In this document: positions 7,006-53,137 of the stretch, piece after piece
Layout of the letters: the number at the start of each line of letters is the position of its first letter
How positions within the stretch are numbered: position 1 is the first letter of the stretch
NCBI GenBank assembly: GCA_047600765.1
Contig: JASGKF010000002.1
Span: 1,226,344 to 1,290,343 of the forward strand
DNA length: 64,000 bases
Direction of reading: 5' to 3'
Origin: Rhodocyclaceae bacterium
Lineage (GTDB): Bacteria; Pseudomonadota; Gammaproteobacteria; Burkholderiales; Rhodocyclaceae
Notes under the pieces: generated by a model
What the model was told of the DNA's origin: nothing
What the model saw: the letters and a program-made list of their open reading frames with translations, nothing else
The model's database searches: none
Program-made: the position numbers and the translations under genes

Positions 7006-7020
7006 GGGTCGAAACCTTGA

Positions 7021-7938: not shown

Positions 7939-7963
7939 GGCGATTTGCGGTGTAGCGGTTGCT

Positions 7964-9526: not shown

Positions 9527-9698
9527 GTCGATCTCTCTTGCTTTTGTAAGTGCCGGGATTGTGGCAGTGCGTTTTGAAAGCCGCTAGGGGCGTTCTGGCT
9601 TCAATGGCGGGATTTTCGACGTGCGGAGGCTGGTTTGTCGGACAGACGGGGTGCGGACGTGTGTCGAACCGCGCGCTGCGGCCCATCCGGGCACCGCT

Positions 9699-9714
9699 TG
9701 GCACGGGACATGCA
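9699..9714 (+). promoter_or_regulatory. Sigma54 promoter of the EPS/exosortase operon
   Basis: TGGCACGGGACATGCA gives GG-N10-GC, about 170 nt upstream of the export gene. Confidence 0.7.
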
Positions 9715-9885
9715 GCTACAATGCGCGCTCACCGCCCTTTATGTTGCAGCGTGGCATTTTTCCGCTTTCCGGGGGCGCTCTCTGGGTACCATGCCCCGGC
9801 TGTGGTGCCCGATAGCCGGGCTTCTGCGCGAGGCAGATGTCGGTTCATCGCGTTTCCATCCTGAATTGCTTGCTGGAGGTTGATC

Positions 9886-10503: not shown

Positions 10504-10544
10504 CCACCGGCTGCATGCCGTCGTGAGTCCGTCGAGAGATCTGA

Positions 10545-12083: not shown

Positions 12084-12092
12084 GAGCGTCGA

Positions 12093-14595: not shown

Positions 14596-14648
14596 GGATG
14601 ACCGCATGAAACCATCCATCCGCAATCTGGCTGTCACGAGGGGCTGTC

Positions 14649-15782: not shown

Positions 15783-15788
15783 CCAGAT

Positions 15789-33421: not shown

Positions 33422-34477
33422 TCAGCTCTCGGCCTGTTTGGTGCTCTTCAGTGATTGCAGACGCCAGCGAAGCGAGTTGAGTGCGCGGTCCATCATTGCC
33501 AACGGCGTGGTGCGCGCATAGTAGCCACGCAGGTAGACGTGTTCTTCGTTGGCGAAGTCACGCTTTGCCTGCGTATCGCCTTCTCCTCTATCCACGCAGC
33601 GTATGCCCAGAGAAGGCGCATGACGCAGCGTTTCCCACAGCAGCAAGCGACCCGGCGAGTAGCTGTGCAGCTCCGGCGTGTAAACGGGGAACCAGTACGA
33701 CAGCGTGTCGTGGCACTGCAGCCCGAAGTGCGCCGCGATGCGTTTGTCGCCGCAGTACAGCGCGGTCAGTCGTGGCAGGCAGCGTAGATCAGCTTGCGCT
33801 GCGAGGTGCTTCAGCAGTTGTGCGTCGCGTGTGCGGGAGAACGGGTGATTGCGCTGGGCGGTGCGCTGATACTGCGCCACCTTCAGGTCGACGAGCCAGT
33901 CCAGCGTACCGCTGTCGACGGATTCAACAGCAAAGCGCAAGGGGCCGTGATCGCGTTCCAACTTGTTGCGTCGGCGCTCGGTGTCCGCAGCAAATTTCTT
34001 GTCGCGCTTGAACAGGGCTTCGATGAAGTCTTCGCCGTCGGCGGCGCGGATGCGCAAGCCGCGTGCGGGCTGGTTGCCGTGCAAGCCGTAGGCATCTTGC
34101 GAGCTGTCGAGATGCGTGAACAGCAGGCTATTGAGGCCACAGGCGCGCAGCAGTTCTTCAGGCGTGATGCGGAAACCGGGGGCGGCAACCAGGCCGAAGT
34201 AATCGGCGAAGCTGCCGCCTGCGGGCTGGGCGCTGCCGAGCAGGCGTGCCTGCAAGCCGTCGAGTTCGAAAGGCATGAACGCCTGCGCCTGGCCTTGCGC
34301 ATCAAGGAAGACGCAGACACGCACGGGCGTTTCGCGGCTCAGGGCACAAGCCACCACATAGCTGCGGGAGAGGAAGGCGTTGCGGGCAGGCGCTTCGTCG
34401 AGCAGGGTGTCCCAGCGTGCGGCATGGCTGGCGTCCAGGTCTTGTGCAGGAACAACGATGGAATGCAGCGTGCTCAT
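33422..34477 (-). CDS. GNAT acyltransferase, CelD/BcsL (Acetyltransf_6)-like
   Basis: ADYFGLV, RRRNKLER, YSPGRLLL, DRGEGDTQAKRDFA; start MSTLHS at 34477. Confidence 0.8.
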   Translation of the reverse strand: MSTLHSIVVPAQDLDASHAARWDTLLDEAPARNAFLSRSYVVACALSRETPVRVCVFLDAQGQAQAFMPFELDGLQARLLGSAQPAGGSFADYFGLVAAPGFRITPEELLRACGLNSLLFTHLDSSQDAYGLHGNQPARGLRIRAADGEDFIEALFKRDKKFAADTERRRNKLERDHGPLRFAVESVDSGTLDWLVDLKVAQYQRTAQRNHPFSRTRDAQLLKHLAAQADLRCLPRLTALYCGDKRIAAHFGLQCHDTLSYWFPVYTPELHSYSPGRLLLWETLRHAPSLGIRCVDRGEGDTQAKRDFANEEHVYLRGYYARTTPLAMMDRALNSLRWRLQSLKSTKQAES

Positions 34478-35907
34478 TGGCGGCGGATTTTCTTGTAAAT
34501 GAGAGCGATCTCCTGCTGCAGCGGGTGCTTGAGCAGGAAGATCGCGCCTATCCATGTGGCGCTCATGATGGTTGCGGTGGCGAAGAGCCTCAGCCATGAA
34601 TTCATGCCTGCCATGAGCAGATCGATCCCGTGGCAGACGGCGGCGCATGCCACGGTGACTGTCAGGGTCGGGATCATCGCGCGGGCAAAAGCGACGAGTG
34701 ATACATCGAACTTGAGTCGCCACACGGCCAGCATCAGTGGCAGGACGAGCAGATCGCCCAGCACGAAGGCCTGCACGAAGGAAGTCATGTCGGCTGCGCC
34801 CGAGGCGATGGCAATGACGGACTTGAAGACGATGGTGGCGCCCATGGTCCATACCGACAGGATGGGGCGACCGATGGCGATCAGGCCATTGGAGGTCTGG
34901 CTGAAGGGCAGGCGCACTGCAGCGGAGACGCACAGCAAGGAGACGAGGGGCAGACATGCCAGCCATTTGTCACCGTAGAGCACGGCCACCATGTCATGCG
35001 CAAAGACGGCGGTGACCCAAAGGATCGGCCAGGCCAGACCGCTGAGATAGACCGCGATGCGGATCATGTCGCCTGCGATGCTCGCGTTCTCGCGATGGCT
35101 GGAGGCCAGCGCCGGCAATGCCGAGTTGTTCACCGCTGGCATGATGACTTGCGAGAACAGCTCGACGAGGCCGTTGGCGCGGCTGTAGAGACCCACGGAG
35201 CGCGCATCGGTGCCACGCGCGAGGAAAGTGTCGGCCAGCGCGTTGTGGATGTTGGTCAGCAGATTGCTGATCGCGGAGACACCGCCGAAACGTGCGATGG
35301 CGCCGCAGCCTTTCAAGGAAGGCAGCCAGGGCTGCCATTTGGGGCGGAAGTACGAGTAGGCGAGACCGCCGGCAATGATGTTGATGAAGTTCGCCCATGC
35401 CATGCTCATATGGCCGAAGCCGCTGGCCGCCAGCGCAATGCAGGAGCCGGCGTACACGACGGCACTGAAAAGGGTGACGGCAGCGAGCTTGCCACCTTCC
35501 ATCTCGCGGCGGAGCAGGGACTGTGTGACCGAACCCAGCGGGATGAAGAAGAAGCCCAGTGCGAGCACCTGGATGATCTGTTCGACCTGTGGGTGACCAT
35601 AGAAGCGGCTGACCGGGCCTGACAGCAAAAGCATGGTGATGGCGATGGCCGACGAGCAGGCGATCAGCACACCGCTTGCAGAACGTACTTTTTCGGGTGT
35701 CAGGTCGGGCTCGCGCAGCAGATACGAGACCACGCCGAAGTCGCGGAAAGTGTGCATCACGCCGACGAACACGGCGGTCATCGAGAACAGGCCGATCTCG
35801 CCCGGTTCGAGCAGGCGGGCGAGTACCAGACCCGACAGGAAGTTGATGACCGTGGCGGCATTCGAACCGGCCATGACAGCGAGGACAGAGCGGCGGACGT
35901 TACTCAT
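34474..35907 (-). CDS. Wzx-type polysaccharide flippase
   Basis: LARLLEPGEIGLF, FRDFGV, VGLYSRANGL and about 12 TM segments. Confidence 0.88.
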   Translation of the reverse strand: MSNVRRSVLAVMAGSNAATVINFLSGLVLARLLEPGEIGLFSMTAVFVGVMHTFRDFGVVSYLLREPDLTPEKVRSASGVLIACSSAIAITMLLLSGPVSRFYGHPQVEQIIQVLALGFFFIPLGSVTQSLLRREMEGGKLAAVTLFSAVVYAGSCIALAASGFGHMSMAWANFINIIAGGLAYSYFRPKWQPWLPSLKGCGAIARFGGVSAISNLLTNIHNALADTFLARGTDARSVGLYSRANGLVELFSQVIMPAVNNSALPALASSHRENASIAGDMIRIAVYLSGLAWPILWVTAVFAHDMVAVLYGDKWLACLPLVSLLCVSAAVRLPFSQTSNGLIAIGRPILSVWTMGATIVFKSVIAIASGAADMTSFVQAFVLGDLLVLPLMLAVWRLKFDVSLVAFARAMIPTLTVTVACAAVCHGIDLLMAGMNSWLRLFATATIMSATWIGAIFLLKHPLQQEIALIYKKIRRQ

Positions 35908-38768: not shown

Positions 38769-39757
38769 GAGGGGTTGCGGATCCTTGCTTTCAGCCAGCG
38801 CGGGATGAAGTGTCGTGCCGCGCGCAGTTTGCCGCCCAGCGAATGGCGGTCGAATGCGAGCAAGGCAACCAGCGCGCGACGATGCGTCATCCACTCTGAC
38901 TTGTAGGCATCGTCACCGGTCAGGAAGTCGATTTCCGTCACGCCGTCGATAGACATGACATGTTCGAACAGGGCTGCCGTGAGGACGGTGCCAACGCCCA
39001 GTCTGGCAAAGCGCGCATCGTAAGCGAGTTTATAGATGGAGGCCGTCTGATTCTTCACGAACCACACCTGAGCGGCGGCAGGTTCGCCCTGAACATGGAG
39101 CACGGCCAGGCGTAGGCTGCCCTGTGCGGCAGTCATGCGGCACAGGCCGGGTATGAAGTCGGGGAATGGCTCAGCCTCCTTCCAGCTGGAGGCATAGACA
39201 CGCTGGAATGCGGCTAGTCCCTCGTTGAATCCGGAGCCTGCCTGCAGGATGAAGTCGATACGGAAACCGGGCGTTTCCTTGAGCTTGCTGTGGCATCTGC
39301 GCAGGGTGTTGCGCAGTCGAGAGGGGCGCTCGGCGAGGTAGCTTTGCCAGCTGAGACCAGCGCAGGGAAGGTACCAGTTGGTGCTGACAGGCAGCAGATC
39401 TGTCGAGAAATCGGCTGATAGTGCCTGTATCAACGCCGGCAACCAGGGAGCATCCTCGCGCAGGGGGCGCAAAATGACTTGCTGCGGGGACTGCGCGCGC
39501 AGGTTCTGCACGAATGCAGGCAGAGTGTCTGCGCAGGGCTGCAGGCCGTCTTCAAAGCCAAAGTCTGGACTGTAGAAATTGCTGCAGGATTCCAGCCCTC
39601 CCGAGCCCCGCATCAAGTGCATGCGCAGTCCGGCAGCTGCGATCAGAACGGGGTGCGCGTCAGGCGGCAGGCCTTTTTGCTGAAGGAGCTCGAACCAGTC
39701 CCGGCCAAGGAACAGCGAACTGCTGCCGGCTTGTCCAGGCAGGGTCGGGCAATTCAT
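38765..39757 (-). CDS. GNAT acyltransferase (Acetyltransf_6/FemAB-like)
   Basis: SNFYSP, LRNTLRR, VYASSWKEAE, YKLAYD, EIDFLTGDDAYKSEWM; probable start MNCPTL at 39757. Confidence 0.8.
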   Translation of the reverse strand: MNCPTLPGQAGSSSLFLGRDWFELLQQKGLPPDAHPVLIAAAGLRMHLMRGSGGLESCSNFYSPDFGFEDGLQPCADTLPAFVQNLRAQSPQQVILRPLREDAPWLPALIQALSADFSTDLLPVSTNWYLPCAGLSWQSYLAERPSRLRNTLRRCHSKLKETPGFRIDFILQAGSGFNEGLAAFQRVYASSWKEAEPFPDFIPGLCRMTAAQGSLRLAVLHVQGEPAAAQVWFVKNQTASIYKLAYDARFARLGVGTVLTAALFEHVMSIDGVTEIDFLTGDDAYKSEWMTHRRALVALLAFDRHSLGGKLRAARHFIPRWLKARIRNPS

Positions 39758-41421
39758 CAGGTCGGCTTTCGAGGGGCTGACGGTGTCGCGCCAATCCTGG
39801 GCGGGGCCTTGTCTGTCTGGCAGACATAAAGTGCTATGCCGCGGTCGATCAACTCCATGCGACAACGATCTTTGAGATAGCGGCTGAACTCCGGATAGTG
39901 ATCCGGGCTGAAGGTCACGGCATCGCCTGAACCCAAGGGGCGGCCGGAAATGTCCACGATGAAGCGCGGGGGCTTGTCCTCCAGATCCTTCATGAAGCGC
40001 TGCCAGATGCCGGGCTTGACAATGCGCAAGCGTGCGGCGGGATCCATGCCCGGGGTGTATTCGGCGAACGTGCCTTGGAGATGATCGGTCAGGAGTACCT
40101 TGGACGCGCCAATCAGGCGAGTGGTGATGAAGTAATCAGGGGCATACCCCCAGACATAAAGCCGGTCATCAGCTTGCGACAGGGCGTTGATACGCATCGT
40201 GATCGGTGATTGCGTCGGTGGAGTCGAACCACTCAGCAGCTGTTTGACAATGGGGGTGCCCGCGGCGACCGCGCTTGAAATGATGGCCAGCGCCCCTGTG
40301 CAGAGCGCAATCCGTCGGAGGATGAGGCTCTCCTGCTGCAGGCAGAACTGGATGAAATAGCCACCCGCCAGTGCCAACGCCGGAAAAGTGAAGAGGTAGT
40401 AGGCCGGATAGTATTCGCGCCCCAGGCTGACGGCGGCAAAGGCGCCGAGCAGGGAAACGAGCAGGAAGCTGCGGACGGGCAGGCTTTGCCCGCTTGCTGT
40501 TGGGTTGGTCCGGTGGCCTGCCGTGGCTAGCACACCCAGCACTGCGAGTAGCCAGCATAGCGGGGCGAGGCGACTGTACTCTTCGGTCGCCGTTACAAAC
40601 CGCATGAGGCGTCGGGATAGTGGGGTGGTGTCCACCGTGGCATAACGGGAGGGGTACTCCAGCGTCTGGTAGATCAGGTCTTCGAGTCCGCCCGCCGCGC
40701 TGAAGTACAGGGCTGCCATGGCAAGAGGCAGAGCGAGTCCGCCAGCGTATGACAGTGCGGTGTGCAGGGTGCTGCGTAGTCTCCGGCCGTTTGTGTATGC
40801 AGCAAGACATAGAACAGACATGCCGGCGGCGGCTAGAACCGCTGGTTGCTTGAACAGCATCGCGACGCCGGTTAGCGCTCCGGCTCCGGCGAAGCCCGCA
40901 TAAGAGACGCGTTTGGCCGAACGCAGCATCAGCCACAAAGCAAGACTCAAGGGCAGGGCTGCAAGTTGCTCGGTCTTGACGGCAATGAAACGCGGATCGC
41001 CTGTTCCCAGCAGCAGGAAAAGAATGCACGCCCAGATGCCCGCCTGGCGCCCCCCCAACTCTGACGCCGCCAGAAAAATGGCGCCTGCGGTCAGGAATAC
41101 CCACAGCATGCCGAAGGCGTGAATGGCTTGCATGTTGTAGTCGCCGAACAGGCTGAAGACCACCTGGTAGATCAGGAAGACGCCGGGGGGCTTGTTGTCG
41201 ATGCAGGCAAGCAGGGGGCCGCTATGTTCTGCAATGGCTCGCATGGCGCAAGCAGCGAAAAAACTTTCGTCTACATTGAGTGAGCCCGCCGTCAGATAGT
41301 GGGCACGAATGCCGAACTGGCAGACGAGTACGGCGGCAAGACACAACCAGGAAAACGCGGCAAGCTGGTTGGCGGGGTTCCTGCGGAAAGCGTCGACAAT
41401 TCTTGGGAACATGTCCGGCAT
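39757..41421 (-). CDS. GT-C-fold (ArnT/PMT_2-like) membrane glycosyltransferase
   Basis: LNVDESFF, DNKPPG, LFKQPA, many TM segments and a soluble C-terminal domain; start at 41421 or 41412. Confidence 0.75.
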   Translation of the reverse strand: MPDMFPRIVDAFRRNPANQLAAFSWLCLAAVLVCQFGIRAHYLTAGSLNVDESFFAACAMRAIAEHSGPLLACIDNKPPGVFLIYQVVFSLFGDYNMQAIHAFGMLWVFLTAGAIFLAASELGGRQAGIWACILFLLLGTGDPRFIAVKTEQLAALPLSLALWLMLRSAKRVSYAGFAGAGALTGVAMLFKQPAVLAAAGMSVLCLAAYTNGRRLRSTLHTALSYAGGLALPLAMAALYFSAAGGLEDLIYQTLEYPSRYATVDTTPLSRRLMRFVTATEEYSRLAPLCWLLAVLGVLATAGHRTNPTASGQSLPVRSFLLVSLLGAFAAVSLGREYYPAYYLFTFPALALAGGYFIQFCLQQESLILRRIALCTGALAIISSAVAAGTPIVKQLLSGSTPPTQSPITMRINALSQADDRLYVWGYAPDYFITTRLIGASKVLLTDHLQGTFAEYTPGMDPAARLRIVKPGIWQRFMKDLEDKPPRFIVDISGRPLGSGDAVTFSPDHYPEFSRYLKDRCRMELIDRGIALYVCQTDKAPPRIGATPSAPRKPT

Positions 41422-41560
41422 GATTCCTGGGGCTGGTAGTGGGGCGTGCTTGGGACCGTCTGCAGGACGTGCTTCCCGAGACCGGTGGATATAATACCGG
41501 ACTGGAATTAGTGAACTGCTCGTGGCCTTGTCTGGCTGCGGCGCATTGAGGAAGCCTGGT

Positions 41561-41809
41561 TTGGATATTCGCAAGGAACTGGCGGTGGTGCTGGACGACG
41601 TGCTGGGGCTGAAGGGCCGTGCACAAGGTTTCGTTGACAGCACGCCGCTGCTGGGGGCGCTGCCCGAGCTCGATTCGATGGCGGTTGTGGGCATCATTGC
41701 CGGTATCGAAGAGCATTTCGGGGTGTATCTCGCCGATGATGAAATCGATGGCAGCAGCTTTGAGACTTTCGGCAGCCTGCTCAAACTGGTGCAGGACAAG
41801 ATTGGCTGA
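41561..41809 (+). CDS. Acyl carrier protein, exosortase A-associated
   Basis: 82-aa acidic protein with PELDSMAVV (phosphopantetheine Ser); probable TTG start at 41561. Confidence 0.9.
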   Translation: MDIRKELAVVLDDVLGLKGRAQGFVDSTPLLGALPELDSMAVVGIIAGIEEHFGVYLADDEIDGSSFETFGSLLKLVQDKIG

Positions 41810-41818: not shown

Positions 41819-42658
41819 ATGGAACCCTTCTACCTCCCCACACCGGAAGGGCGCATTTACGGATTGCATCTTCCCGCTGGCGGTACGCCTCGGGGGGCGT
41901 TGTTGTGGCTGCCGCCGTTCGCCGAAGAGGCGCACTGCGCACGTCGCCATCTGGTCGCGGCAGCGCGGGAGTGCCAAGCCGAAGGTTTCTCCAGCCTGTT
42001 GATTGATCCATTGGGTACGGGGGAGAGCGACGGTGACTTCTCCAGCGCAAGCTGGGAAATCTGGTGCCGTCATGTGGGCCTCGCTGCGAGCTGGTTGCGT
42101 GAGCGGGTGCCGGCTCCGCTGTGGCTGGCTGGATTGCGTGCAGGCAATCTGCTGGCGGCCGATGTCGCAGCGCAGGTGATGCCGGCGGGGTTGCTGTGCT
42201 GGCAGCCCGCGATGGATGGCCGGACGGTGCTGGACGGTTTCCTGCGACTCAAACTGGCGTCGACCTGGGCGGCAGATGCGGGTGGAAGTTCTGGAAGCAA
42301 TGCCGCCAGCATCCTCGCTGATTTGCGTGACGAACTTGCTGCTGGTCGAAGTGTGGATGTCGCAGGCTTTACGCTCTCAGCCGAACTGGCCGGTGTGCTG
42401 GCATCGCGTGGCATGTCCTGGGCGCTTGATTGCGCCCCGCGACTGGCTTGTCTTGAATTCCGGTCTCGCCAGACAGATGGTGTGCTGCCTCCGCATTCAC
42501 CGGGCTTGGCGCGACAGCGTGACAACTGGCGTTCGCAGGGAGTGCAGGTACTCAGCCAGGTCGTGGAGGCACCGCAATTCTGGTTGCAGCATGAGGCGCC
42601 GCTGACACCAGGGTTAGGGCGCGCCAGCGCAGCCTTGATCGGGAAGCTGGAAGCATGA
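41819..42658 (+). CDS. Alpha/beta hydrolase 2, exosortase A-associated
   Basis: LPPFAEEAHCARR, DPLGTGESDGDF; elbow reads GLRAG (no Ser); LRLKLA motif. Confidence 0.85.
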   Translation: MEPFYLPTPEGRIYGLHLPAGGTPRGALLWLPPFAEEAHCARRHLVAAARECQAEGFSSLLIDPLGTGESDGDFSSASWEIWCRHVGLAASWLRERVPAPLWLAGLRAGNLLAADVAAQVMPAGLLCWQPAMDGRTVLDGFLRLKLASTWAADAGGSSGSNAASILADLRDELAAGRSVDVAGFTLSAELAGVLASRGMSWALDCAPRLACLEFRSRQTDGVLPPHSPGLARQRDNWRSQGVQVLSQVVEAPQFWLQHEAPLTPGLGRASAALIGKLEA

Positions 42659-43512
42659 CGCTGGCCACGAGTTTTCCCCTCGTCATTCCGCTTGGTCAGA
42701 AACATGCGCCGCGACTGGTGGGCACCGTGCATCCGCCGGCGGGTGAGCCTCGTGGGCCCGGCGTTGTATTCGTGACGGGTGGCATGCAGACGCGGGCGGG
42801 CAGTCATCGCGGCTTCATTTCGCTGGCGCGTGTGCTTGCCGCCAGTGGCTTTCCCGTTTTGCGTTTCGATCTGCCCGGATTGGGCGACGCCGAAGGCGAG
42901 ATGCGTGACTTCGCAGACAATACGGATGTCATCCACGCTGCTACGGATGCCTTGATCTCGGCCGTACCGGGTATGGATCGGGTGGTGCTGTGGGGCCTGT
43001 GTGATGGTGCCAGCGCAGCGGCCCTGTTCGTGCGTGAAGAGTCGCGCGTAGCCGGGCTCTTTCTCGTCAATCCCTGGTTGCTGTCGGAACAGGCGCAAGC
43101 CCGTGCGATGTCAGGCTATTACAGGCAACGTTTCCTGTCGCCAGAGTTCTGGCGCAAGCTGCTTGGCGGCCAGGTGGATGTCACCGGAGCTTTGCGTGGC
43201 TACGTCATGAACTGGTGGTGTGCGAAGGGGGATTCTGACCCAGCACAGCCTGCTGCTCAGGCCGGCAGGGTTCAACCCTTGTCTGCACGTGTGCTGCAGG
43301 CGCTGGAATCTTTTGACGGCAAGCTGCAGCTTGTCGTGTCGGGACAAGACCTGACTGGGCAAGCTTTCGTAGCGGCAGCTGCTGGTCGCAGTTTGTCACT
43401 CATACAGGTCGGGGACGCCGATCACACCTTTTCGTCCATCGCAGCACAACAGCAACTCGAAGTGCTGAGCCAGCAGTTCCTGGAGTCGTTCTGCCCGGAC
43501 CGCGCGCCCTGA
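42655..43512 (+). CDS. Alpha/beta hydrolase 1, exosortase A-associated
   Basis: GGMQTRAGSHR, RFDLPGLGDAEG, elbow WGLCDGAS (Cys), VNPW, DLTG, ADHTFS. Confidence 0.85.
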   Translation: MTLATSFPLVIPLGQKHAPRLVGTVHPPAGEPRGPGVVFVTGGMQTRAGSHRGFISLARVLAASGFPVLRFDLPGLGDAEGEMRDFADNTDVIHAATDALISAVPGMDRVVLWGLCDGASAAALFVREESRVAGLFLVNPWLLSEQAQARAMSGYYRQRFLSPEFWRKLLGGQVDVTGALRGYVMNWWCAKGDSDPAQPAAQAGRVQPLSARVLQALESFDGKLQLVVSGQDLTGQAFVAAAAGRSLSLIQVGDADHTFSSIAAQQQLEVLSQQFLESFCPDRAP

Positions 43513-43518
43513 GGCGAG

Positions 43519-43884
43519 TCAGCTGCGGGCGACGACAAAGACGCCCGCGCAGATCAGCGCGACGCCGAGCAGTCTTTGTGGCGTGACCTGTTCGCCCATC
43601 ATGAAACCGACGGCGGCAGTGAAGAAGAAACCGAGTCCTACCAGCGGGTAGGCCTTGCTGACATCCCACTTCGACAACACGGCGAGCCATACCATCGCCC
43701 CCAGTGCGTAGAGTGCGAGCCCACCGAACACGTACTTGTCGAAGAGCACGGCGAAGACGGTGCGGATCGTGAAGGGCTCGGCCAGCGTAGCTTTGAGTGC
43801 TGCACCGGACATGCCAGCCTTCAGCGAGAACTGCGCGGCGACCGAGAAGAGGATGCTGACGACGGCGATGATGAGGGTTTTCAT
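43519..43884 (-). CDS. EamA/SMR-like 4-TM protein, ArnE/ArnF-type lipid-linked sugar flippase candidate
   Basis: 121 aa with four TM helices; AQFSLK, WLAVLSKWDVSKAYPLVGLG. Confidence 0.75.
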   Translation of the reverse strand: MKTLIIAVVSILFSVAAQFSLKAGMSGAALKATLAEPFTIRTVFAVLFDKYVFGGLALYALGAMVWLAVLSKWDVSKAYPLVGLGFFFTAAVGFMMGEQVTPQRLLGVALICAGVFVVARS

Positions 43885-43907
43885 TGTTCTTGTTGCGGAG
43901 CCGGGCC

Positions 43908-45509
43908 TCAGCGCTGCGACTTGATCGTGTGGTTGATGATGGGCAGATCGATGCTTTGCTCGCGCGGGCCCGTGGCAACCGGGCCGAGATTTTCGTAGAT
44001 CACGAGCTCTTTTTCGTGTGCCGGGTAGTTGGCTGGTGTGTCGAAACGCGCCACCTGCTTGAACTGGGGGCTTGCAATGACACGTTCGAAGCGTTGCATG
44101 GCGGCCAGATCGTTCCAGAATCCGGGCTGCACAACGAGGTATTTCACCCCGAGTTTGTTGAGCTGATCAGAAATATCGGCTTCACTCAGTGGCTTTTCTT
44201 CAACGCCCAGCGCACGTCGTACAGCAACGCGCAGCAGGATCTTGTCAGCGCGCACGACAGTAAGGTCGCGACGGTCTTCGCGTTCACGCATGTTGAAGAC
44301 GAAGGAACCATCGCGGTAGCCCGAGAACAGTACGGCGCTGTCGCGCGGAGCGTGGTGAGCGATCCAGTCCGCGACCTGTGCGTAGCCTTCGACCTTGAGC
44401 ACCGGACGGAAGAACACCGTTTGCACGATGACGGCGATGCCCAGTGCGGCGAGCGCGGCGATCGCCAGTGTCTGTCGTGGCAAACGCGTCAGCAGGAAAA
44501 CTGCGAAGGCCACTACGGGGGGGAGAATGAACACGCTATGGCGTGCTTCCTTTAGGTCGATGGCCGAGAAAAACAGATAACCGATGCCGAACCAGGCTAG
44601 CCAGAACAGGGCGTCACCACGCTGCACGTCGTCGCGCGGGAGCCAACGCATTGCGAGCAAGCCGCCACAGGCCGCGATAAGCACGGGCCAACCGAGTTGG
44701 TCAGGCAGTTGCTTGAAATACCACAGCCAGCCGGCGAGGCTGCGACGCGAAACCTCGGCATCGGCAATGCCGCTGACCGACTGCACGTTGGCCTGACCGA
44801 ACTTGAGCGTCAGTACCACGAGGGGCACCAGCGCGAGCACTGCTGCAATGGCGATCAGCCACAGCTTGTAGTCGCGCAGCGTGCGCCAGCCACGGTCATG
44901 CAGCAGGCACAGCAGGTAAACCGGCGCGAGGAAGGCGGCCGTGATCTTGGTGTACATCGCTGCGACCAGCAGAAAGATGGCGAGCGTCAGATGCAGGGTG
45001 CGGCCTTCGCGGCGGTAGTGCATGAAGCAGACGGCGCTCCAGATCAGGAAGGCGAGCGAAGGCACTTCCAGCATGATCTGGCGACCCCAGAACGTGATCT
45101 CGGGTGCGCACACCAGCAGGGCCGCGGCGAGCCCGGCCTGCGTGGCCGGCAGCCAGAAGCGGAACAGTTTCCAGCAACCCCAGGCGAAGGCCATGTAGTG
45201 CAGGCAGACGACCAGCAAGGCTGTTTCGTGCGAAACGCCGAAGAGGGCGTAGAACGGCGCGCTGAGCACATAGAACAGCGGCGGATAGAACAGGATGGTC
45301 AGCGCCGGGTACTGCGCGTAGTAAGCGTAGGCGAAGCCGGACGGATCGCGCCAGGGCATGGCCAGCACGAGATCCTTTACGAAGACGCCGTTGAGCGCGT
45401 GGCGCGGTGCATCGCTCCAGTAAAAGGCGCCGTCGTGGGGGGCGCCGAGGAAGAGCAGGGCGGTGCCGACAAGCAGCAGGGCAAGTACGAGGCGGGGATG
45501 GAGGTTCAT
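43908..45509 (-). CDS. GT-C-fold (GT39/ArnT-like) membrane glycosyltransferase
   Basis: FYWSDAPRH, FYPPLFY, IMLEVP, YTKITA, many TM segments and a C-terminal periplasmic domain. Confidence 0.75.
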   Translation of the reverse strand: MNLHPRLVLALLLVGTALLFLGAPHDGAFYWSDAPRHALNGVFVKDLVLAMPWRDPSGFAYAYYAQYPALTILFYPPLFYVLSAPFYALFGVSHETALLVVCLHYMAFAWGCWKLFRFWLPATQAGLAAALLVCAPEITFWGRQIMLEVPSLAFLIWSAVCFMHYRREGRTLHLTLAIFLLVAAMYTKITAAFLAPVYLLCLLHDRGWRTLRDYKLWLIAIAAVLALVPLVVLTLKFGQANVQSVSGIADAEVSRRSLAGWLWYFKQLPDQLGWPVLIAACGGLLAMRWLPRDDVQRGDALFWLAWFGIGYLFFSAIDLKEARHSVFILPPVVAFAVFLLTRLPRQTLAIAALAALGIAVIVQTVFFRPVLKVEGYAQVADWIAHHAPRDSAVLFSGYRDGSFVFNMREREDRRDLTVVRADKILLRVAVRRALGVEEKPLSEADISDQLNKLGVKYLVVQPGFWNDLAAMQRFERVIASPQFKQVARFDTPANYPAHEKELVIYENLGPVATGPREQSIDLPIINHTIKSQR

Positions 45510-45521
45510 GGTATTCGTGCC

Positions 45522-46934
45522 TTACATCGCGACCAGTACGGTGATGGCTATGGCGACAAAGCTGGCCCAGCTGCCGCGGTCGCGCAGGCTGAAGACGATG
45601 GGGTCGTCATGCATCTGGCCGCGTGTGGTCTTCATCCACAGTCGCGAAATCCAGTACAGCATGAACGGGCAGAGCAGCCACAGTAGTTGTGGATGGCTGT
45701 AGTGGGAGGCGACGTAGGGTGAGTCAACATAGAGCGCCAGCACCAGCACCGACAGGTAGCCCGCTGACGCACCGAGGCTGATGACGGTCTGCAGGTCGCT
45801 GCGCCCGTAGTCGCGGCCCTTGGCGTGCTCGCGTTCGAGCTTCTCCATGGCGACCAGCTCGGAGGCGCGCTTGACCAGCGCGAGGCTGAGGAACACGAAC
45901 ATCGAGAACGCCAACAACCAGGATGACAGCGGCACGGCGATGGCGACAGCGCCGGCCATGATGCGTAGCGTGTAGAGCCCGGCGAGCAGCAGCACGTCGA
46001 TCAGCATGTAGGTCTTGAAGTACAGCGAGTACGACAGCGTGACGACGAGGTAACCCAGCAGTACGAGCAGGAAATTCGGTGAGACCCAGCACGCTGCAGT
46101 GATGCCGGCAGTCAGCAGGACAGTCATGACGATGATGCCGCTGGCGATGCCAATGTCGCCCGCTGCGAAAGGGCGGCGGCATTTGCGTGGGTGGCGGCGA
46201 TCGCTTGGCAGATCGAGCAGGTCGTTGAACATGTAGGTGGCTGAAGCGACCAGACCGAAGGCGAGGAAGGCAATGCTCACCGTGAGGAAGCTCTGTGCGG
46301 TGAAGGCATGCGAGGTGAGCAATGGCACGCCGATCAGCAGGTTCTTGAGCCACTGGTAGACGCGCGCCTCCTTGATCCAGGCACGCAGCGCAGCAGGGCG
46401 GTTTTCGAAGACGCGTTCGACTTCGCCACGCGTACGGGCGCCGGCTTCGACGCCGCTGTCGGGATTGACGACGATGGCCTTGCGCGACTTTTCCCAGATC
46501 GGGTAGTCGGCTGTGGCGTTACCGGCGTAGTCGAACACCGGGCCGACTTCGAGGATGGCCTTGAGCTTTTCGCTGCCACGCATGTTGCGTTCGCCATCGC
46601 TGGCGATGACGCCACGGAACAAGCCGACGCGTTCGGCGACAGGCTGCGCGAGGCGTGCGTCCGAGGCTGTGGCCAACCAGATTTCGCGCCCGCTTGCGGC
46701 TTCAGCCTGCAGGTATTCGACGAACTGTGCGTGCAGTGGCAGCGAATCCGATTCCAGCGTCACGCGGGAGGCAATCTGTGCCTTCAGGTGCGCCTTGCCA
46801 CGCAGCAGCCAGCCGATCATCGCGAACAGCATCCAGGGCTGCCGCTTGAGCAGTGCCAGCGCGCTCTCGACGAGCAGATCGGTCTTGATCAGGGTGCCGT
46901 CGAGGTCGACGAAGAGTGGAGGCTGGCCGGACAT
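45522..46934 (-). CDS. HAD-like domain fused to a UbiA-family polyprenyl-phosphate phosphoribosyltransferase
   Basis: N-terminal VDLDGTLIKTD (HAD motif I); C-terminal QWLKNLL, YMFNDLLDLPSDRRHPRKCRRPFAAG, KRASEL and MHDDPIVF, as in Rv3806c-type enzymes. Confidence 0.88.
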   Translation of the reverse strand: MSGQPPLFVDLDGTLIKTDLLVESALALLKRQPWMLFAMIGWLLRGKAHLKAQIASRVTLESDSLPLHAQFVEYLQAEAASGREIWLATASDARLAQPVAERVGLFRGVIASDGERNMRGSEKLKAILEVGPVFDYAGNATADYPIWEKSRKAIVVNPDSGVEAGARTRGEVERVFENRPAALRAWIKEARVYQWLKNLLIGVPLLTSHAFTAQSFLTVSIAFLAFGLVASATYMFNDLLDLPSDRRHPRKCRRPFAAGDIGIASGIIVMTVLLTAGITAACWVSPNFLLVLLGYLVVTLSYSLYFKTYMLIDVLLLAGLYTLRIMAGAVAIAVPLSSWLLAFSMFVFLSLALVKRASELVAMEKLEREHAKGRDYGRSDLQTVISLGASAGYLSVLVLALYVDSPYVASHYSHPQLLWLLCPFMLYWISRLWMKTTRGQMHDDPIVFSLRDRGSWASFVAIAITVLVAM

Positions 46935-47051
46935 GTCGGGGTCAGATAAGTGATCGGGACGACTTGGGCCCCTCGTGAGGCCGCGCAGAGCATAGCGTTT
47001 TGCTGCGTCTGCGGTGTGAAATATGCCTTCAGGTACGGCGCAGGGCCAAGG

Positions 47052-48080
47052 CTACTTTGCCGGGACGGCGAAGAGGGGGGCGCTGGCGCGCGCCACGATG
47101 CCCGTGGTCAGCGCATTCCAGTGCTTGTCGTAGGGGGCGACCTCCAGCCGCAGGGCACTGGTCTTGTAGTGGGCTGCGAAGAGCGGCTCGGTGTCGACAA
47201 CGGGGACGCCAGCGCTGGCGGCAGCTGCCTTGAAGCGGCTCAGCACGCGCGAGCTGGGCGTGCGTCCCTCGTGGATCGCTTCGCGGTCGCTGTCCATGAC
47301 GAGGACGAAGCGGGTGTCAGGCATGGCCGCCAGTCCGGCAAAGAAGCGGCGGATGATCTCCTCGGCCGCCTTGTCGTCGATCTGGTCTTCCGGTGGCACG
47401 GATGCAGTGCGTGGAGCCGGCGCACTGCGCGGGGGGAACAACTGGCCCACCAGTGCTTCTGGTTTGATGCGCAGCTGCGAGAAGAGGTACTGCGCCAGCG
47501 CCGATTCGCGCACCAATGCCTTGAGCTTGCCAGCTGGCGCCTGCCTGTCGCTGCCGGGCTGCAGGGTGGTGGCGTCCAGGCAGGGGCCGTGCGTATTGCC
47601 GGAGCCACACAGCGTCTGCCTGACGTCGCTGCGCTCCACGACGATGAGGAATTTGCGGATGCCGAAGCGCTCCTGCGCAAAGCGTGCGCGGGCGAGGTAG
47701 TCAAACAGAGAGGAGCCGGGGCCACCCATGGAATACACGGGCGTCTGGTTCAACTGGTGTTCGAGCTGGCGGGACAGGCGCTCTTCCTCCGGCAGCATGT
47801 TGGCTTCGACGAAGCTGTCGCCGATGACGGCGACGGCGGTCGGATCACGCGTGAAATCGCGACTGTCGAGGAAGCCGACGTTGTTGCTGCGCAGATGTTG
47901 GGCGTTCTTCAGGTCCCAGCCGGATGACAGCGTGAAGCTGTGGTGTGCCGGGTAAGTGATGATGTCGGGCGCGAAGTGGTAGGCCGTGTGCGTGGCCGTC
48001 GAGACGGGCAGCAGCCTGCAGAGCAGCTCCAGCAGCAGCAAGGCAGTCATGACACCAGCGAGGAAGCGGAGGGCGCGCAT
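47052..48080 (-). CDS. SGNH-hydrolase-like (AlgJ/AlgX-type) periplasmic O-acyltransferase partner
   Basis: N-terminal TM helix, VIGDSFVEA (GDS) and DKHWN (DxH); directly downstream of the MBOAT gene. Confidence 0.75.
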   Translation of the reverse strand: MRALRFLAGVMTALLLLELLCRLLPVSTATHTAYHFAPDIITYPAHHSFTLSSGWDLKNAQHLRSNNVGFLDSRDFTRDPTAVAVIGDSFVEANMLPEEERLSRQLEHQLNQTPVYSMGGPGSSLFDYLARARFAQERFGIRKFLIVVERSDVRQTLCGSGNTHGPCLDATTLQPGSDRQAPAGKLKALVRESALAQYLFSQLRIKPEALVGQLFPPRSAPAPRTASVPPEDQIDDKAAEEIIRRFFAGLAAMPDTRFVLVMDSDREAIHEGRTPSSRVLSRFKAAAASAGVPVVDTEPLFAAHYKTSALRLEVAPYDKHWNALTTGIVARASAPLFAVPAK

Positions 48081-48087
48081 GCTGGTC

Positions 48088-49566
48088 TCAGAAATTGAAG
48101 TAAATGAAGGCGCTGACCGCACTGCGCGTCGCGTTGATCAGCATGGCGCACAGGATGATCGTCCACGCGCAACCCAGTACGAAAGCAGGCCAGCGTGCCG
48201 AGCCATTGCAGAAGCGGATCAGCCATTCGCCGATGCGGTTGCTGTTGGGCAACAGCGCACAGCACAGCAGGCCGATGATGCAGAACAGCACCGCGGTGCC
48301 GGTGTGGATGCCGGCATTCCATAACAGGGTGTGTGGCGCGTCGAATGCCACCGGCTGGCTCAGCATGGCGCTCAGCAGGGTGTTGGCGCCATGCAGGTCC
48401 GTCGCGCGGAAGAATACCCAGCCAACCATGACAGCCAGCAGGGTCACGATCCAGGCAAACACGCTGTAAGCGCGTCCTTGCAGGATGGTTTCCGGCAGCA
48501 TCGCAGCCGCGCCCGCGCGCCAAGCGTGATTGATCATCAGGTAGCCGCCATGCAGTGCGCCCCAGATGACGAAGTTCCAGCTCGCGCCGTGCCACAAGCC
48601 ACCGAGCAGCATGGTGGTGAAGAGGTTGGCATAACGACGCACGGCACCGTGACGACTGCCACCCAGCGGGATGTAGAGGTAGTCACGCAGGAAAGCCGAC
48701 AGGGTCATGTGCCAGCGCCGCCAGAAGTCGATGATCGATAGCGCCTTGTAGGGCGAATCGAAGTTGTAGGGCAGGCTGATGTTGAGCATGCGGGACAGGC
48801 CGATGGCCATGTCCGAGTAGCCGGAGAAGTCGAAGTAAAGCTGCAGGGTGTAGGCGAGCACGCCCAGCCAGGCTTCAAGCAGATCCGGCGTGATGCCTTG
48901 GCTACTGCCATGGAAGACGGCATCGGCAATCGGCGAGATGCCGTCCGCGATGACGACCTTCTTGATCAGGCCCAGCATGAAGATGGCTGAGCCTGCCGCG
49001 AAATTGCCAGCGTTGAAACGATAAGTCGAGGCATCGCCGAACTGCGGCATCATCTGCGCGTGATGCAGCACCGGGCCGGCAATCAGGTGCGGGAAGTAGG
49101 TGACGAACAGGCCGTAGTGCGCCACGCGCGGTTCGCTGACGCCCTTCTGGTAGGCATCGGCGAGGAAGGCAATCTGCGTGAAGGTGAAGAACGAGATGCC
49201 GATGGGCAGCGTGATGGGATCTAACGCGATGTGCGTGCCCAGTGCGAGACTCAGGTTGTCGACGAAGAAGTTGGCGTACTTGAACCAGGCGAGTACAGCG
49301 AGATTGACCGTGATGCCCAGCACCAGCCAGCTGCGTGCGCTGAATGTTTTTCCTCGGCCCAGGATGCGTTTGCCGATGAAGTAATTCCAGGCAATCGAGA
49401 GCAGCAACAGGATGCTGAACTGCGGCATCCACCAGGCGTAGAAACCTACCGAAGCAATGAATAGCCAGCTTGCCGCGAGCGGATGCGAGCGCTGCCCCAG
49501 CAAGAAGAAAACGCTGAGGGCGAGCGGCAGGAAGACGAGTATGAACTCGGCAGAAGTGAAGAGCAT
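48088..49566 (-). CDS. MBOAT O-acyltransferase (AlgI/PatA type)
   Basis: MLFTSAEF, LPIGISFFTF, FPHLIAGP, YFDFSGYSDMAIG, DFWRRWHMTLS, LWHGASWNF. Confidence 0.93.
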   Translation of the reverse strand: MLFTSAEFILVFLPLALSVFFLLGQRSHPLAASWLFIASVGFYAWWMPQFSILLLLSIAWNYFIGKRILGRGKTFSARSWLVLGITVNLAVLAWFKYANFFVDNLSLALGTHIALDPITLPIGISFFTFTQIAFLADAYQKGVSEPRVAHYGLFVTYFPHLIAGPVLHHAQMMPQFGDASTYRFNAGNFAAGSAIFMLGLIKKVVIADGISPIADAVFHGSSQGITPDLLEAWLGVLAYTLQLYFDFSGYSDMAIGLSRMLNISLPYNFDSPYKALSIIDFWRRWHMTLSAFLRDYLYIPLGGSRHGAVRRYANLFTTMLLGGLWHGASWNFVIWGALHGGYLMINHAWRAGAAAMLPETILQGRAYSVFAWIVTLLAVMVGWVFFRATDLHGANTLLSAMLSQPVAFDAPHTLLWNAGIHTGTAVLFCIIGLLCCALLPNSNRIGEWLIRFCNGSARWPAFVLGCAWTIILCAMLINATRSAVSAFIYFNF

Positions 49567-49584
49567 CGCGGCGAGGCGGTGGCG

Positions 49585-49608
49585 CTATCCCCTCGACCGA
49601 GGGGATAG
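49585..49608. other. Perfect inverted repeat between argB and the MBOAT gene
   Basis: CTATCCCCTC-GACC-GAGGGGATAG, with no U-tract. Confidence 0.7.
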
Positions 49609-49612
49609 ATCG

Positions 49613-50515
<903 letters not shown>

Positions 50516-50779
50516 TCAAATGAGGCTGCTGCGAGTGAACGGGGATGTTGGCGGTGTCAGATCAACACTGCGAACGTGCATGTTAAGCGCGAGAGGCTAG
50601 CATTCCCGAATTCAATCCGCCAAGCAATTCCCATGGAGCCAGATGACGGCGCATCCCGACCTTTGTATGTAGTTGCTTCACTCGGGGCTGATTGCGCCAA
50701 AGCTGAGTACTGCAAAAACAAAATCGGCATGGCCGGACTTGCCGGCGCATGCCGATAGAGGTGGCTTGGGGAGCCGGAA

Positions 50780-53137
50780 TTACTTTGTGTAGATGCCCGG
50801 AGCTTCGCTCAGTCCGACCACCGTGTTTCTCGGCACGATGTTCCATGTGGGGTTGCTCATGAACCCGGCACGATCCGAGTTGGTGCTCCCGGTATACATT
50901 GCCTGATCGCGTAGCCAGACGTAGCCGGAGCTCGGAACGGTCGTGTCGGCACCAGCAGAGTCAATGGCTCCGGCCAGAACTGCCATTGCCATGCCGACGT
51001 ACCCGTTGGCGTCGTTGTATCCAACAATCTTGGTAGGCGCTGTCGGGTTGCGTGCAGCGTAGCTTGTACCGCCGAAAGCATAGTAGTTCAGCTGGGCCAT
51101 GCTGGTGAGCGTAGTGCCATTGCTCAGCTTGGAGGGCAAGCGATAGGTCGCTCCGTCGAGTCGATCAAAGTCGGAACCGCTCGTAAAGCGCTTGACGGTA
51201 TAGCCCACCGCGAAATCGCGAATGTCGGTGGCGGCGTAACCGCGCTCACACAACTCAAACAGCGTATATGCCATGAAGTCGTGTTGCCATGGCGAGACCA
51301 CGTCTGCAACGCCACCAGGCGAGTAGGGCAGTTCGTAGGAAGCAAAGCCCGACCAACCTGTCCAGTAACCGAGGGTGTTGTTCGTCATGACCGTTGTTCT
51401 GTACCAAGCAAAGTTGTTGTTCAACTTGTCGGTGAAGTAGGTCTTTTGCCAATCGCTGTCCGGAGCAATCCATGCAGCATGGCCACCCGTACGGAGCTTC
51501 CATGCCATCTGGCGGGTGTTGTCGCCGATGTACCAACCTTTTTCATAGCCGCGATAAGCGTAGTGCGGGGAGATCTGGTACCAACCGGCCCAGAAATAGA
51601 GTTCATCCAGGTAAAACCGATCACCGGTGACGATGTACGGGACGTAAACCAAGGACGGATGGTGCGCGTCATCGACAGTGAATCCGGAAGGCGTCGTCAA
51701 AGGCAGGCTGGGCGCTGGCAAGGAGTCACCGGACCAGTTGGTATAAGGGTCGCCACGGTAAGCCTGGCTGCCGTTGTAGAACAGAGAGAAATTCGGATGG
51801 TCGTCAATGCTGAAGATGCTGGCATTGGAGGTGGTGGCACCGCTCTTGAGCGAGTCTCGCCAATGCACCTCCCAGAACCCGGCTCGTTCGGCATGATCAA
51901 GCATCATCTGGTACATGCGGGGATCGCCGGAAATCAGGGCCAGTGCAGTCCATCCGGGCAGTGGGCCAATGTCCCAGCGTCCGCCCGTGGAGGGCATGTA
52001 GGGCTGCATGCGCGCGGCTTGGTAAAGTCCGCGGGAGCTAGTCAGCCATGAGCTATAGGTGCTGCTCAACGTACCTTCTGGAATCGTGATGCTCGCGTAA
52101 TTGGGAATGGCGCGTGAATTCTTCAGGCGAGCGGTGTCGGCAATGGTCAGGATGTCCTTGCTACCTGTGCCGAAATTGAAGAGCTTGCGGAAGCGCGTAT
52201 GGGCGTAGTGCTTGACGTCATCCGCGGCATAAACCAGATCCGTGGTGCCGCCGATGATCTGGTAGATGCGCAGGTTGTAGAGACGGTCACCACGCGAGCT
52301 GTTCGATTCGACGTTTTCCAGCGTGATCGACACACGACCTTGCGAAGTGCTTTGGTAACGGGCATCGAAGACGATGCGCAGGCCGGGGTGCGGGCCGGAA
52401 ATGCCGGTCGCGGTTGGCGCAACACGCGAACGCCATTCCGACACGAGCGGACCACTGATCCAGCTGTCTGCGTTGTTCGTGAGTGAAGCCTTGAGGTTGG
52501 CACTCCACAGCAGACCGGTTTCCGGCGTGCTGGCGCCGCTGGCGGTGGTGCTCTTCTCGATGATCTCCACGCGGTAGTCGGGATTGCTGCCGCCGGTCAC
52601 ATCCGAGACAACCAAGGGCGTTCCGGACGCGCCAGAACCTGTGGCCGACAGTGTCATAGCGACGGTGGCCTGGCCCGAGCCGACCGAAGCGGCAGGCAGG
52701 CGCACGCTGATGACTGCGTGGCGGATGGAGTTGTCTGGGTGACGACGCTTGACAATGGTCTGGGTCGGCAGGTTGGTGCCGCCGTTGCGGGCCTGAACGA
52801 CCTGGCCGGAAGCGATTTCGCCAGCCGGGAAGGCTTGTCCGAAGGTCACCACCGTACCGTTATCAATAGTGGTATCCGGGCTGACCGCGGTCACATTGCC
52901 CGGGGTGGAGGGCACCGGGGTCCAGGTGATGGTCGTGTCGAAATTGTTCGAGCTGGCAGCAGATGAGGTGCCGCCGGACGACGTTGTTGCCTTGGATGAA
53001 GAGCTGTTGCTGACCAGGGAGAAAGTGCCAGCAGTGTTGCCAACGACGTTGGTGCTACCGCCACCGCCTGTTCCGCCGCAGGCACTTACCGCGATACATG
53101 CAAGCAGGGCGACGAAACGTGAATTGCTGAGAGACAT
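50780..53137 (-). CDS. 785-aa lipoprotein of unknown function, PcRGLX/YetA (PL26)-like architecture suspected
   Basis: Lipobox VSAC and Gly/Ser linker, VTFGQAFPAG...PTQ...HPDNSIRH (RIFT-barrel-like), GPLVSEW beta region, and an aromatic-rich helical C-part with YIVTGDRFYLDEL. Confidence 0.7.
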   Translation of the reverse strand: MSLSNSRFVALLACIAVSACGGTGGGGSTNVVGNTAGTFSLVSNSSSSKATTSSGGTSSAASSNNFDTTITWTPVPSTPGNVTAVSPDTTIDNGTVVTFGQAFPAGEIASGQVVQARNGGTNLPTQTIVKRRHPDNSIRHAVISVRLPAASVGSGQATVAMTLSATGSGASGTPLVVSDVTGGSNPDYRVEIIEKSTTASGASTPETGLLWSANLKASLTNNADSWISGPLVSEWRSRVAPTATGISGPHPGLRIVFDARYQSTSQGRVSITLENVESNSSRGDRLYNLRIYQIIGGTTDLVYAADDVKHYAHTRFRKLFNFGTGSKDILTIADTARLKNSRAIPNYASITIPEGTLSSTYSSWLTSSRGLYQAARMQPYMPSTGGRWDIGPLPGWTALALISGDPRMYQMMLDHAERAGFWEVHWRDSLKSGATTSNASIFSIDDHPNFSLFYNGSQAYRGDPYTNWSGDSLPAPSLPLTTPSGFTVDDAHHPSLVYVPYIVTGDRFYLDELYFWAGWYQISPHYAYRGYEKGWYIGDNTRQMAWKLRTGGHAAWIAPDSDWQKTYFTDKLNNNFAWYRTTVMTNNTLGYWTGWSGFASYELPYSPGGVADVVSPWQHDFMAYTLFELCERGYAATDIRDFAVGYTVKRFTSGSDFDRLDGATYRLPSKLSNGTTLTSMAQLNYYAFGGTSYAARNPTAPTKIVGYNDANGYVGMAMAVLAGAIDSAGADTTVPSSGYVWLRDQAMYTGSTNSDRAGFMSNPTWNIVPRNTVVGLSEAPGIYTK

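Follow-up and report, generated by a model that had tools for sequence, protein, structure and literature searches.

A predicted three-component pentofuranose cassette without DprE1 and DprE2 beside an XrtA/PEP-CTERM exopolysaccharide locus

When a bacterium carries genes for a lipid-linked pentofuranose donor and no recognisable DprE1 or DprE2, which sugar does it make, and to what acceptor is that sugar transferred? The question is raised by positions 43519-46934 of a 64-kb window (the whole stretch of DNA analysed here) from a Rhodocyclaceae genome of 4.12 Mb in two contigs, 93% complete. This region is exactly filled by three minus-strand open reading frames (ORFs) separated by gaps of 12 and 23 nt, in full agreement with the coordinates of an earlier note on this DNA, which had described a polyprenyl-phospho-pentose cassette. 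The genes encode a 470-amino-acid (aa) HAD-UbiA fusion protein (P0001; 45522-46934), a 533-aa GT-C glycosyltransferase (P0002; 43908-45509) and a 121-aa ArnE/F-like four-helix transporter (P0003; 43519-43884).

We propose that the cassette is most likely a further member of the three-component pentofuranose system published for Citrobacter youngae O1 (Kelly et al., PNAS 2024, PMC11127046). There ORF15, in which an N-terminal HAD phosphoribose phosphatase (PRP) is joined to a UbiA-type phosphoribosyltransferase (PPPRS), makes polyprenyl-phosphate (P)-ribofuranose from phosphoribosyl pyrophosphate (PRPP). ORF14, a small transporter, resembles ArnEF (supplement of PMC11127046); the accessions of ORF15 and ORF14 are AWU66546.1 and AWU66545.1. 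ORF12, a GT-C enzyme and the founding member of family GT136, decorates the O antigen with alpha-ribofuranose in the periplasm; by sequence, the structure closest to ORF12 is that of ArnT (PMC11127046). Without an epimerase the sugar is ribofuranose, with the short-chain dehydrogenase/reductase (SDR) ORF13 it is xylofuranose and with DprE1/E2 homologues it is arabinofuranose (PMC11127046). The authors describe three-component systems as widespread, including systems for glycans of unknown structure (PMC11127046). The novelty implied by the earlier note therefore does not hold, as the pathway was published in 2024 (PMC11127046) and is common; our cassette leaves the understanding of the pathway itself unchanged, and what is particular to it is the XrtA/PEP-CTERM setting.

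Results

The cassette encodes the predicted parts of a pentofuranose system

Judged by homology and by the predicted structure of P0002, the cassette appears to supply each component described by Kelly et al.: a PPPRS, a HAD domain, an ArnE/F-type transporter (scoring below cut-off) and a GT-C enzyme. P0001 has the layout of a PRP-PPPRS fusion, with HAD at about residues 1-175 and UbiA at about residues 176-470, and matched the NCBIfam HAD-UbiA model NF006088 (PRK08238) with 638 bits (cut-off 351). Its second- to fourth-best NCBIfam matches were decaprenyl-phosphate phosphoribosyltransferase models (108-158 bits), and other UbiA subfamilies reached at most 43 bits. Pfam returned UbiA with 78.5 bits and HAD with 28 bits (cut-off 27). 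The sole sequence relative in the PDB was Mycobacterium tuberculosis Rv3806c (8j8j; 97 bits over residues 176-401), in an alignment that includes NDLLDLPSDRRHPRK of P0001 against NDVRDVEADREHPTK of Rv3806c and in which the NDxxDxxxD motif is conserved.

Residue conservation was assessed by aligning 31 HAD-UbiA proteins collected for this analysis. In the HAD domain, which contains the motif FVDLDGTL, residues D10, D12, K123 and D143 (motifs I, III and IV) were invariant, D10 and D12 making up the DxD nucleophile motif, and T89 was conserved at 90% or more. In the UbiA domain N237, D238, D241, D245, K355 and R356 were invariant; the first four form the N-D-x-x-D-x-x-x-D motif (N237-D238-x-x-D241-x-x-x-D245) that is a feature of cytoplasmic loop II of PPPRS enzymes. 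Kelly et al. mutated D18, N247, D248, D251, D255 and R366 of ORF15 (PMC11127046). Going by motif spacing and not by direct alignment, invariant residues of P0001 probably correspond to these positions, and E359 (conserved at 90% or more) to ORF15 E369. The predicted product of P0001 is undecaprenyl-P-ribofuranose made from PRPP. An Rv3806c-type UbiA enzyme with a fused HAD domain able to remove the 5-phosphate is what the earlier note had envisaged. Both halves of that assignment stand, the first on the match to 8j8j and the conserved motif, the second on invariant HAD motifs whose residue classes are essential in ORF15. When we looked in the alignment for residues separating DprE-linked from DprE-less proteins none were found, which fits identical chemistry in the two groups.

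P0002 matched Pfam PMT_2 with 57.5 bits (cut-off 26.1) and had no PDB sequence match at E≤1. An NCBIfam scan gave only Agl23 (25 bits) and no ArnT equivalog model. An AlphaFold2 model built from 28 sequences (predicted local distance difference test score 78.6, predicted template-modelling score 0.84) was compared with known structures by Foldseek, which returned ALG12, ArnT (5f15 and 5ezm; template-modelling score ∼0.6), STT3/PglB, DPY19 and ALG9 with a probability of 1.0, and EmbC more weakly. The predicted structure thus confirmed a GT-C fold of ArnT-like architecture, in which the C-terminal ∼160 residues (about 370-533) are modelled as an alpha/beta periplasmic domain as in ArnT. Just after the first transmembrane helix lies the motif WSDAPRH, in which R36 never varies and D33 is kept in at least 90% of the sequences, remote GT-C proteins of related loci included; D33 is a candidate catalytic aspartate. 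P0002 is accordingly annotated as a predicted periplasmic pentofuranosyltransferase. The HAD-UbiA and GT-C domain assignments made previously were both upheld by NCBIfam, Pfam and Foldseek.

P0003 scored best against the NCBIfam models for ArnF (50 bits) and ArnE (38 bits), with TMEM234 and EamA also among its matches. All of these lay under the curated cut-offs, so that the former label 'EamA' is only approximate, and the protein is better described as small and ArnE/F-like, with four helices. Homologues of P0003 (39-98% identity) directly follow HAD-UbiA in 11 loci of other genomes, and in one further locus the homologue lies 12 kb from it, giving 12 loci in all. The protein is a predicted flippase for lipid-linked pentose and, since it is encoded by a single gene, presumably acts as a homodimer.

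The genome contains no orthologue of DprE1 or DprE2

As reference queries we used two proteins of a genome of the same genus (G002), a 434-aa DprE1 and a 246-aa SDR DprE2, whose genes directly follow that of a HAD-UbiA paralogue 47% identical to P0001. The 434-aa protein scored 256 bits against M. tuberculosis DprE1 and 346 bits against the NCBIfam DprE1 model. For the SDR the top PDB match was M. tuberculosis DprE2, with 151 bits to the DprE2 model and 261 bits to PRK07102.

Searching our genome by tblastn with the DprE1 query gave only matches of 52-69 bits to the FAD-binding domain of two unrelated flavoproteins, and the DprE2 query found generic SDRs at no more than 76 bits. Profile searches of the same genome gave best scores of 75 and 73 bits, over the FAD domain only, for the DprE1 model NF053785 (cut-off 500), 91.5 bits for the DprE2 model NF053786 (cut-off 250) and 144 bits for NF005489 (cut-off 267); for the DprE1, DprE2 and PRK07102 models nothing exceeded the cut-off. 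None of the 33 genome-wide matches to the GalE-type epimerase family PF01370 falls in the window (C2:1226344-1290343). An arabinofuranose pathway of the decaprenyl-phospho-arabinose type would thus be missing both DprE1 and DprE2 in this genome. The earlier note had reported no DprE1/DprE2 in the window and had named the discovery of homologues elsewhere in the genome as grounds for rejecting its reading; the absence extends to the whole 93%-complete genome. Its further suggestion, that the epimerase is borrowed in trans, finds no support, as neither this genome nor four other species with the same GT-C and HAD-UbiA has DprE1, and this genome has no DprE2 orthologue either.

Three proteins were considered as hidden homologues and rejected. 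A 489-aa FAD_binding_4 protein (G000:C2:1789333-1790802) is closest to xylitol oxidase and matches DprE1 weakly, over the FAD domain only. A 743-aa protein (C2:422775-425006) is a methyltransferase fusion kept in congeners with or without HAD-UbiA. The best SDR (C2:231417-232148), tried as DprE2, belongs to the PRK07024 equivalog (370 bits, above the cut-off of that family). The 489-aa protein is a VAO-family flavoprotein encoded between ligA and selO (L002, 9334-10803), with xylitol oxidase as its best PDB match and no counterpart in six congeners at E≤1e-10 (DprE1 query). Its neighbour ligA (G000:C2:1787274-1789326; L002, 7275-9327) consists of two overlapping ORFs, one (7275-8390) holding the adenylation domain and the other (7804-9327) the OB, zinc-finger, HhH and BRCT domains, which suggests a frameshift or an assembly error. 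The 743-aa protein joins a FAD_binding_4 oxidase to an S-adenosylmethionine-dependent methyltransferase and is encoded near a fatty-acid cis/trans isomerase gene (L007, 9776-12007); look-alikes of 748-763 aa occur in all congeners searched except G005.

The cassette belongs to an established DprE-less lineage

We then asked how often HAD-UbiA occurs without DprE1 in a 400-genome sample of the class, counting a DprE1 as true at E≤1e-30. Full-length HAD-UbiA was present in 40 genomes, 27 with a true DprE1 and 13, ours included, without one, so the DprE-less state is common, at about one third of HAD-UbiA genes in the sample. DprE1 and DprE2 directly followed HAD-UbiA in all eight DprE-type loci fetched from the sample and likewise in the reference congener (9/9). 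A GtrA-like gene was found near three of the eight, and also in that congener. In DprE-less loci an ArnF-like gene commonly follows HAD-UbiA.

In a maximum-likelihood tree of the 31 HAD-UbiA proteins P0001 fell in a clade of eight with 100/100 support, in which an ArnF-like neighbour was present in 8/8 cases and DprE1/E2 in 0/8. Because this clade is uniformly ArnF-like and without DprE1/E2, the arrangement represents an established lineage and not a recent loss. The genomes G001, G004, G012 and G440, which have an orthologous GT-C and HAD-UbiA, reached at most 74 bits with the DprE1 model (346 bits for the true protein); a true DprE1 is lacking in G001, G004, G012 and Massilia sp. Root351.

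Several observations were made alongside this survey. Comparison of loci L059-L066 with L047-L055 and L009-L012 paired ArnF-like genes with DprE-less HAD-UbiA and GtrA-like genes with DprE1/E2-linked HAD-UbiA, the exception being G079, where a GtrA-like gene occurs without DprE1. The reference congener's locus (L025; G002:C1:1682000-1701999) encodes at 5987-15895 a GalE-like epimerase, a PRK07233 FAD oxidoreductase, a 131-aa small membrane protein (GtrA-like, as judged by eye), HAD-UbiA, DprE1 and DprE2, followed by Wzm/Wzt, a module predicted to decorate an ABC-transporter-exported O antigen with arabinofuranose. A PPPRS-like gene of the UbiA-only kind (∼290-330 aa, without HAD) directly follows a GT-C gene (∼500-530 aa) in loci L030, L031 and L033 (from G007, G011 and G012), with no DprE1 or ArnF-like gene adjacent; the PMT_2 scan of that GT-C covered L030 and L031, and a DAHP synthase gene stands ahead of the two genes in L031. 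Two HAD-UbiA proteins, from a contig labelled as a Pirellulaceae metagenome-assembled genome (MAG) (L011, CAKQWG010000154.1) and from a Thauera MAG (L010), are near-identical tree neighbours (branches of 0.04 and 0.10). The 'Pirellulaceae' contig is for this reason probably a misbinned betaproteobacterial one.

The cassette accompanies the XrtA locus in only some relatives

In betaproteobacteria of wastewater and fresh water, XrtA/PEP-CTERM loci drive the formation of flocs and biofilms; few structures have been determined for their polysaccharides. NCBIfam XrtA-system models define a complete exopolysaccharide locus of this kind at 9880-43512 of the window. Its genes encode an exporter, a chain-length determinant, a tyrosine kinase, an outer-membrane protein, an ATPase, a deacetylase, a FemAB protein, an stp1 glycosyltransferase, exosortase A (18946-20478), an amidotransferase, Wzx (34474-35907), a decarboxylase, a ligase and the XrtA-associated hydrolases 2 and 1 (41819-43512). 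Every one of these scored above the cut-off of its XrtA-system model apart from hydrolase 2, which fell just short (195 bits versus 202.75), and Wzx, whose best match was a general MOP-flippase model (133 bits versus 273). The cassette is convergent with hydrolase 1, the two stop codons lying 6 nt apart.

The cassette was present in only some relatives. Among 41 of them, XrtA was found in 18 and the GT-C orthologue in only four (G000, G001, G004, which is Viridibacterium curvum, and G012). In these four the GT-C gene adjoins HAD-UbiA and lies 15-25 kb from xrtA, with three gene orders among the four species; the V. curvum cassette is 92% identical to ours. Congeners G005 and G006 carry XrtA without the cassette. 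More distant GT-C orthologues (58-65% identity) were found in six contexts, two of them housekeeping and four XrtA loci, the latter in Undibacterium terreum, Pseudoduganella aquatica, Massilia sp. Root351 and a 5-Mb MAG contig. In Massilia sp. Root351 HAD-UbiA lies ∼57 kb from the GT-C gene on the same contig. The XrtA/PEP-CTERM exopolysaccharide locus thus has the cassette as a variable accessory. A search of the available library for papers linking exosortase loci to ribose or pentofuranose found nothing relevant.

Upstream of the cassette on the same strand lie argB and genes for an AlgX-like SGNH protein (47052-48122, minus strand; Pfam ALGX 25 bits, just under cut-off) and an MBOAT protein (48088-49566, minus strand; Pfam MBOAT 105 bits, DltB-like 163 bits and under cut-off). 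The last two overlap by 35 nt, are separated from the HAD-UbiA gene by 117 nt and occur in the same order with the cassette in V. curvum. They are predicted, from their families, to be a periplasmic polysaccharide O-acetylation pair and may be co-transcribed with the cassette. This arrangement suggests that one operon serves to modify the polymer in the periplasm after polymerisation, by O-acetylation and by pentofuranosylation. Scanning 43000-51000 revealed no promoter-like site, and its terminator-like sites were not clearly above shuffled expectation; as these scans were uninformative, the operon structure is read from gene spacing.

A second GT-C gene lies inside the XrtA locus (39757-41799, minus strand; 680 aa; Pfam PMT_2 48.5 bits). 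Kinship with P0002 was considered and dropped, since BLASTP found no similarity between the two. A search of the 400-genome sample found no homologue of the 680-aa protein at E≤1e-15, the V. curvum and G001 loci lack it, and it is specific to the source strain. Its gene may be a recent insertion, or the enzyme may, as a second user, draw on the lipid-linked pentose donor.

Discussion

The data suggest the following route. On the cytoplasmic side, ribofuranose-5-phosphate would be moved from PRPP to undecaprenyl phosphate by the UbiA domain of P0001, and the fused HAD domain would remove the 5-phosphate to yield undecaprenyl-P-ribofuranose, both steps being proposed from homology and catalytic residues. 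The ArnE/F-like protein would flip this lipid to the periplasmic face, as its family resemblance and conserved adjacency indicate, and the ArnT-like GT-C, going by its fold, would then pass the sugar to an acceptor. With neither a DprE1/DprE2 pair in the genome nor an SDR epimerase in the window, the sugar would most likely still be D-ribofuranose. Because the cassette is a variable XrtA-locus accessory behind the MBOAT/AlgX-like pair, the acceptor would most likely be the XrtA-associated exopolysaccharide, decorated after polymerisation. The direct transfer of ribofuranose that the earlier note had suggested gains support from the closest characterised system, C. youngae O1, which works in this way without an epimerase (PMC11127046). 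We hold the type of pathway with high confidence. The identity of the sugar as D-ribofuranose is probable, and the exopolysaccharide as acceptor, our weakest inference, is modestly favoured; the combined statement of a three-component system that transfers ribofuranose to exopolysaccharide we consider fairly likely.

Several points weigh against this proposal. The donor lipid, sugar, anomeric linkage and acceptor are all inferred, and P0003 scores under every curated family cut-off. The genome, at 93% completeness and in two contigs, does not make the absence of an epimerase fully secure, and it holds many unassigned SDRs, GalE-type epimerases and the 489-aa VAO-family oxidase. The C-terminus of ORF12 is a beta-rich carbohydrate-binding module, in contrast to the alpha/beta, ArnT-like C-terminus modelled for P0002. 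Finally, the GT-C keeps 58-65% identity across families and in two loci (L070 and L071) stands in a housekeeping context with no XrtA genes nearby, so its conservation and these contexts could mean a conserved acceptor other than exopolysaccharide.

This last point leads to the possibility that pathway and donor are as proposed and that the sugar goes to a conserved envelope molecule such as lipid A or the lipopolysaccharide core (as with ArnT), or to PEP-CTERM and other secreted proteins that undergo glycosylation in the periplasm. The ArnT-like modelled fold and domain layout of P0002, the two orthologues outside any XrtA locus and a degree of conservation across several Burkholderiales families that is unusual for variable-polysaccharide enzymes speak for it. 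However, eight of the ten contexts examined are XrtA loci, the absence of the cassette from 14 of the 18 XrtA-bearing relatives suits an optional decoration, P0002 matches Agl23 and no ArnT equivalog in NCBIfam, and the cassette lies behind a same-strand polysaccharide O-acetylation pair; we therefore rate a different acceptor as rather unlikely. A bolder form, in which the GT-C ribofuranosylates PEP-CTERM proteins or another conserved envelope acceptor in exosortase-dependent floc formation and the exopolysaccharide is not decorated, is a long shot. If true, it would provide the first protein or lipid target of a lipid-linked ribofuranose donor.

The sugar itself might also differ, if the donor were epimerised before transfer, to give xylofuranose, arabinofuranose or another pentofuranose, by an enzyme that is encoded elsewhere and is no relative of DprE1/E2. 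In C. youngae O2 a single GalE-like SDR (ORF13) gives the xylofuranose donor, and the GT-C accepts either donor (PMC11127046); our genome could draw on its PF01370 proteins, its many classical SDRs or the xylitol-oxidase-like protein, for which congeners gave no match at the threshold applied. Against this, wherever epimerase genes have been published or sampled they are part of the cassette or adjoin it, as in all nine DprE-type loci, none stands beside the cassette in 12 SMR-type loci, and V. curvum, with the same cassette at 92% identity, yielded nothing of the 489-aa oxidase class at E≤1e-10, which makes a distant epimerase improbable. Least probable of all, and hard to credit, is a reading of the UbiA domain as a conventional prenyltransferase whose acceptor is not a sugar, with its adjacency to GT-C and transporter a coincidence. 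UbiA is indeed a broad superfamily, but phosphoribosyltransferase models far outscore the other UbiA subfamilies (108-158 versus at most 43 bits), Rv3806c is the only PDB sequence match of P0001, and the HAD fusion with GT-C/flippase linkage recurs in many lineages.

If the acceptor is the exopolysaccharide, the cassette predicts furanose pentose side chains, probably of alpha-ribofuranose, on some XrtA polymers, as an optional and strain-variable decoration alongside O-acetylation. The prediction is testable in V. curvum JCM 18715, a cultured type strain with the same cassette.

Comparison with known systems

The mycobacterial decaprenyl-phospho-arabinose pathway, which comprises Rv3806c, Rv3807c, DprE1, DprE2, Rv3789 and the Emb/Aft GT-C enzymes and has a counterpart in pilin arabinosylation of Pseudomonas aeruginosa, resembles the proposed route in its UbiA-type PRPP:polyprenyl-phosphate phosphoribosyltransferase, the removal of the 5-phosphate and GT-C transfer outside the cytoplasm. 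It differs in that our genome is without DprE1/DprE2, the phosphatase is a fused HAD domain instead of a PAP2 protein, and the predicted flippase is ArnE/F-like and not GtrA-like.

With the ArnT/ArnEF system for aminoarabinose on lipid A, whose transferase ArnT is assigned to GT83, the cassette would share an undecaprenyl-phosphate-linked pentose donor, a small flippase of the ArnE/F type and the ArnT-like fold and domain order. The routes to the donor differ: in that system ArnC, a GT2 enzyme, starts from UDP-Ara4FN, and in the cassette a UbiA enzyme would start from PRPP. P0002 has 16% identical residues in the structural alignment and no NCBIfam ArnT match, the predicted flippase is one gene instead of two, and the neighbours of P0002 are HAD-UbiA and XrtA-locus genes and not an arnBCADTEF cluster.

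The closest counterpart remains the system of C. youngae O1. By homology and predicted structure the two are alike in the order of the HAD-UbiA fusion and its catalytic motifs, in the ArnE/F-like transporter, in the ArnT-like GT-C and in having no epimerase. They part in their surroundings: the prototype decorates an ABC-transporter-exported O antigen, and the cassette described here stands in a Wzx/XrtA/PEP-CTERM exopolysaccharide locus.

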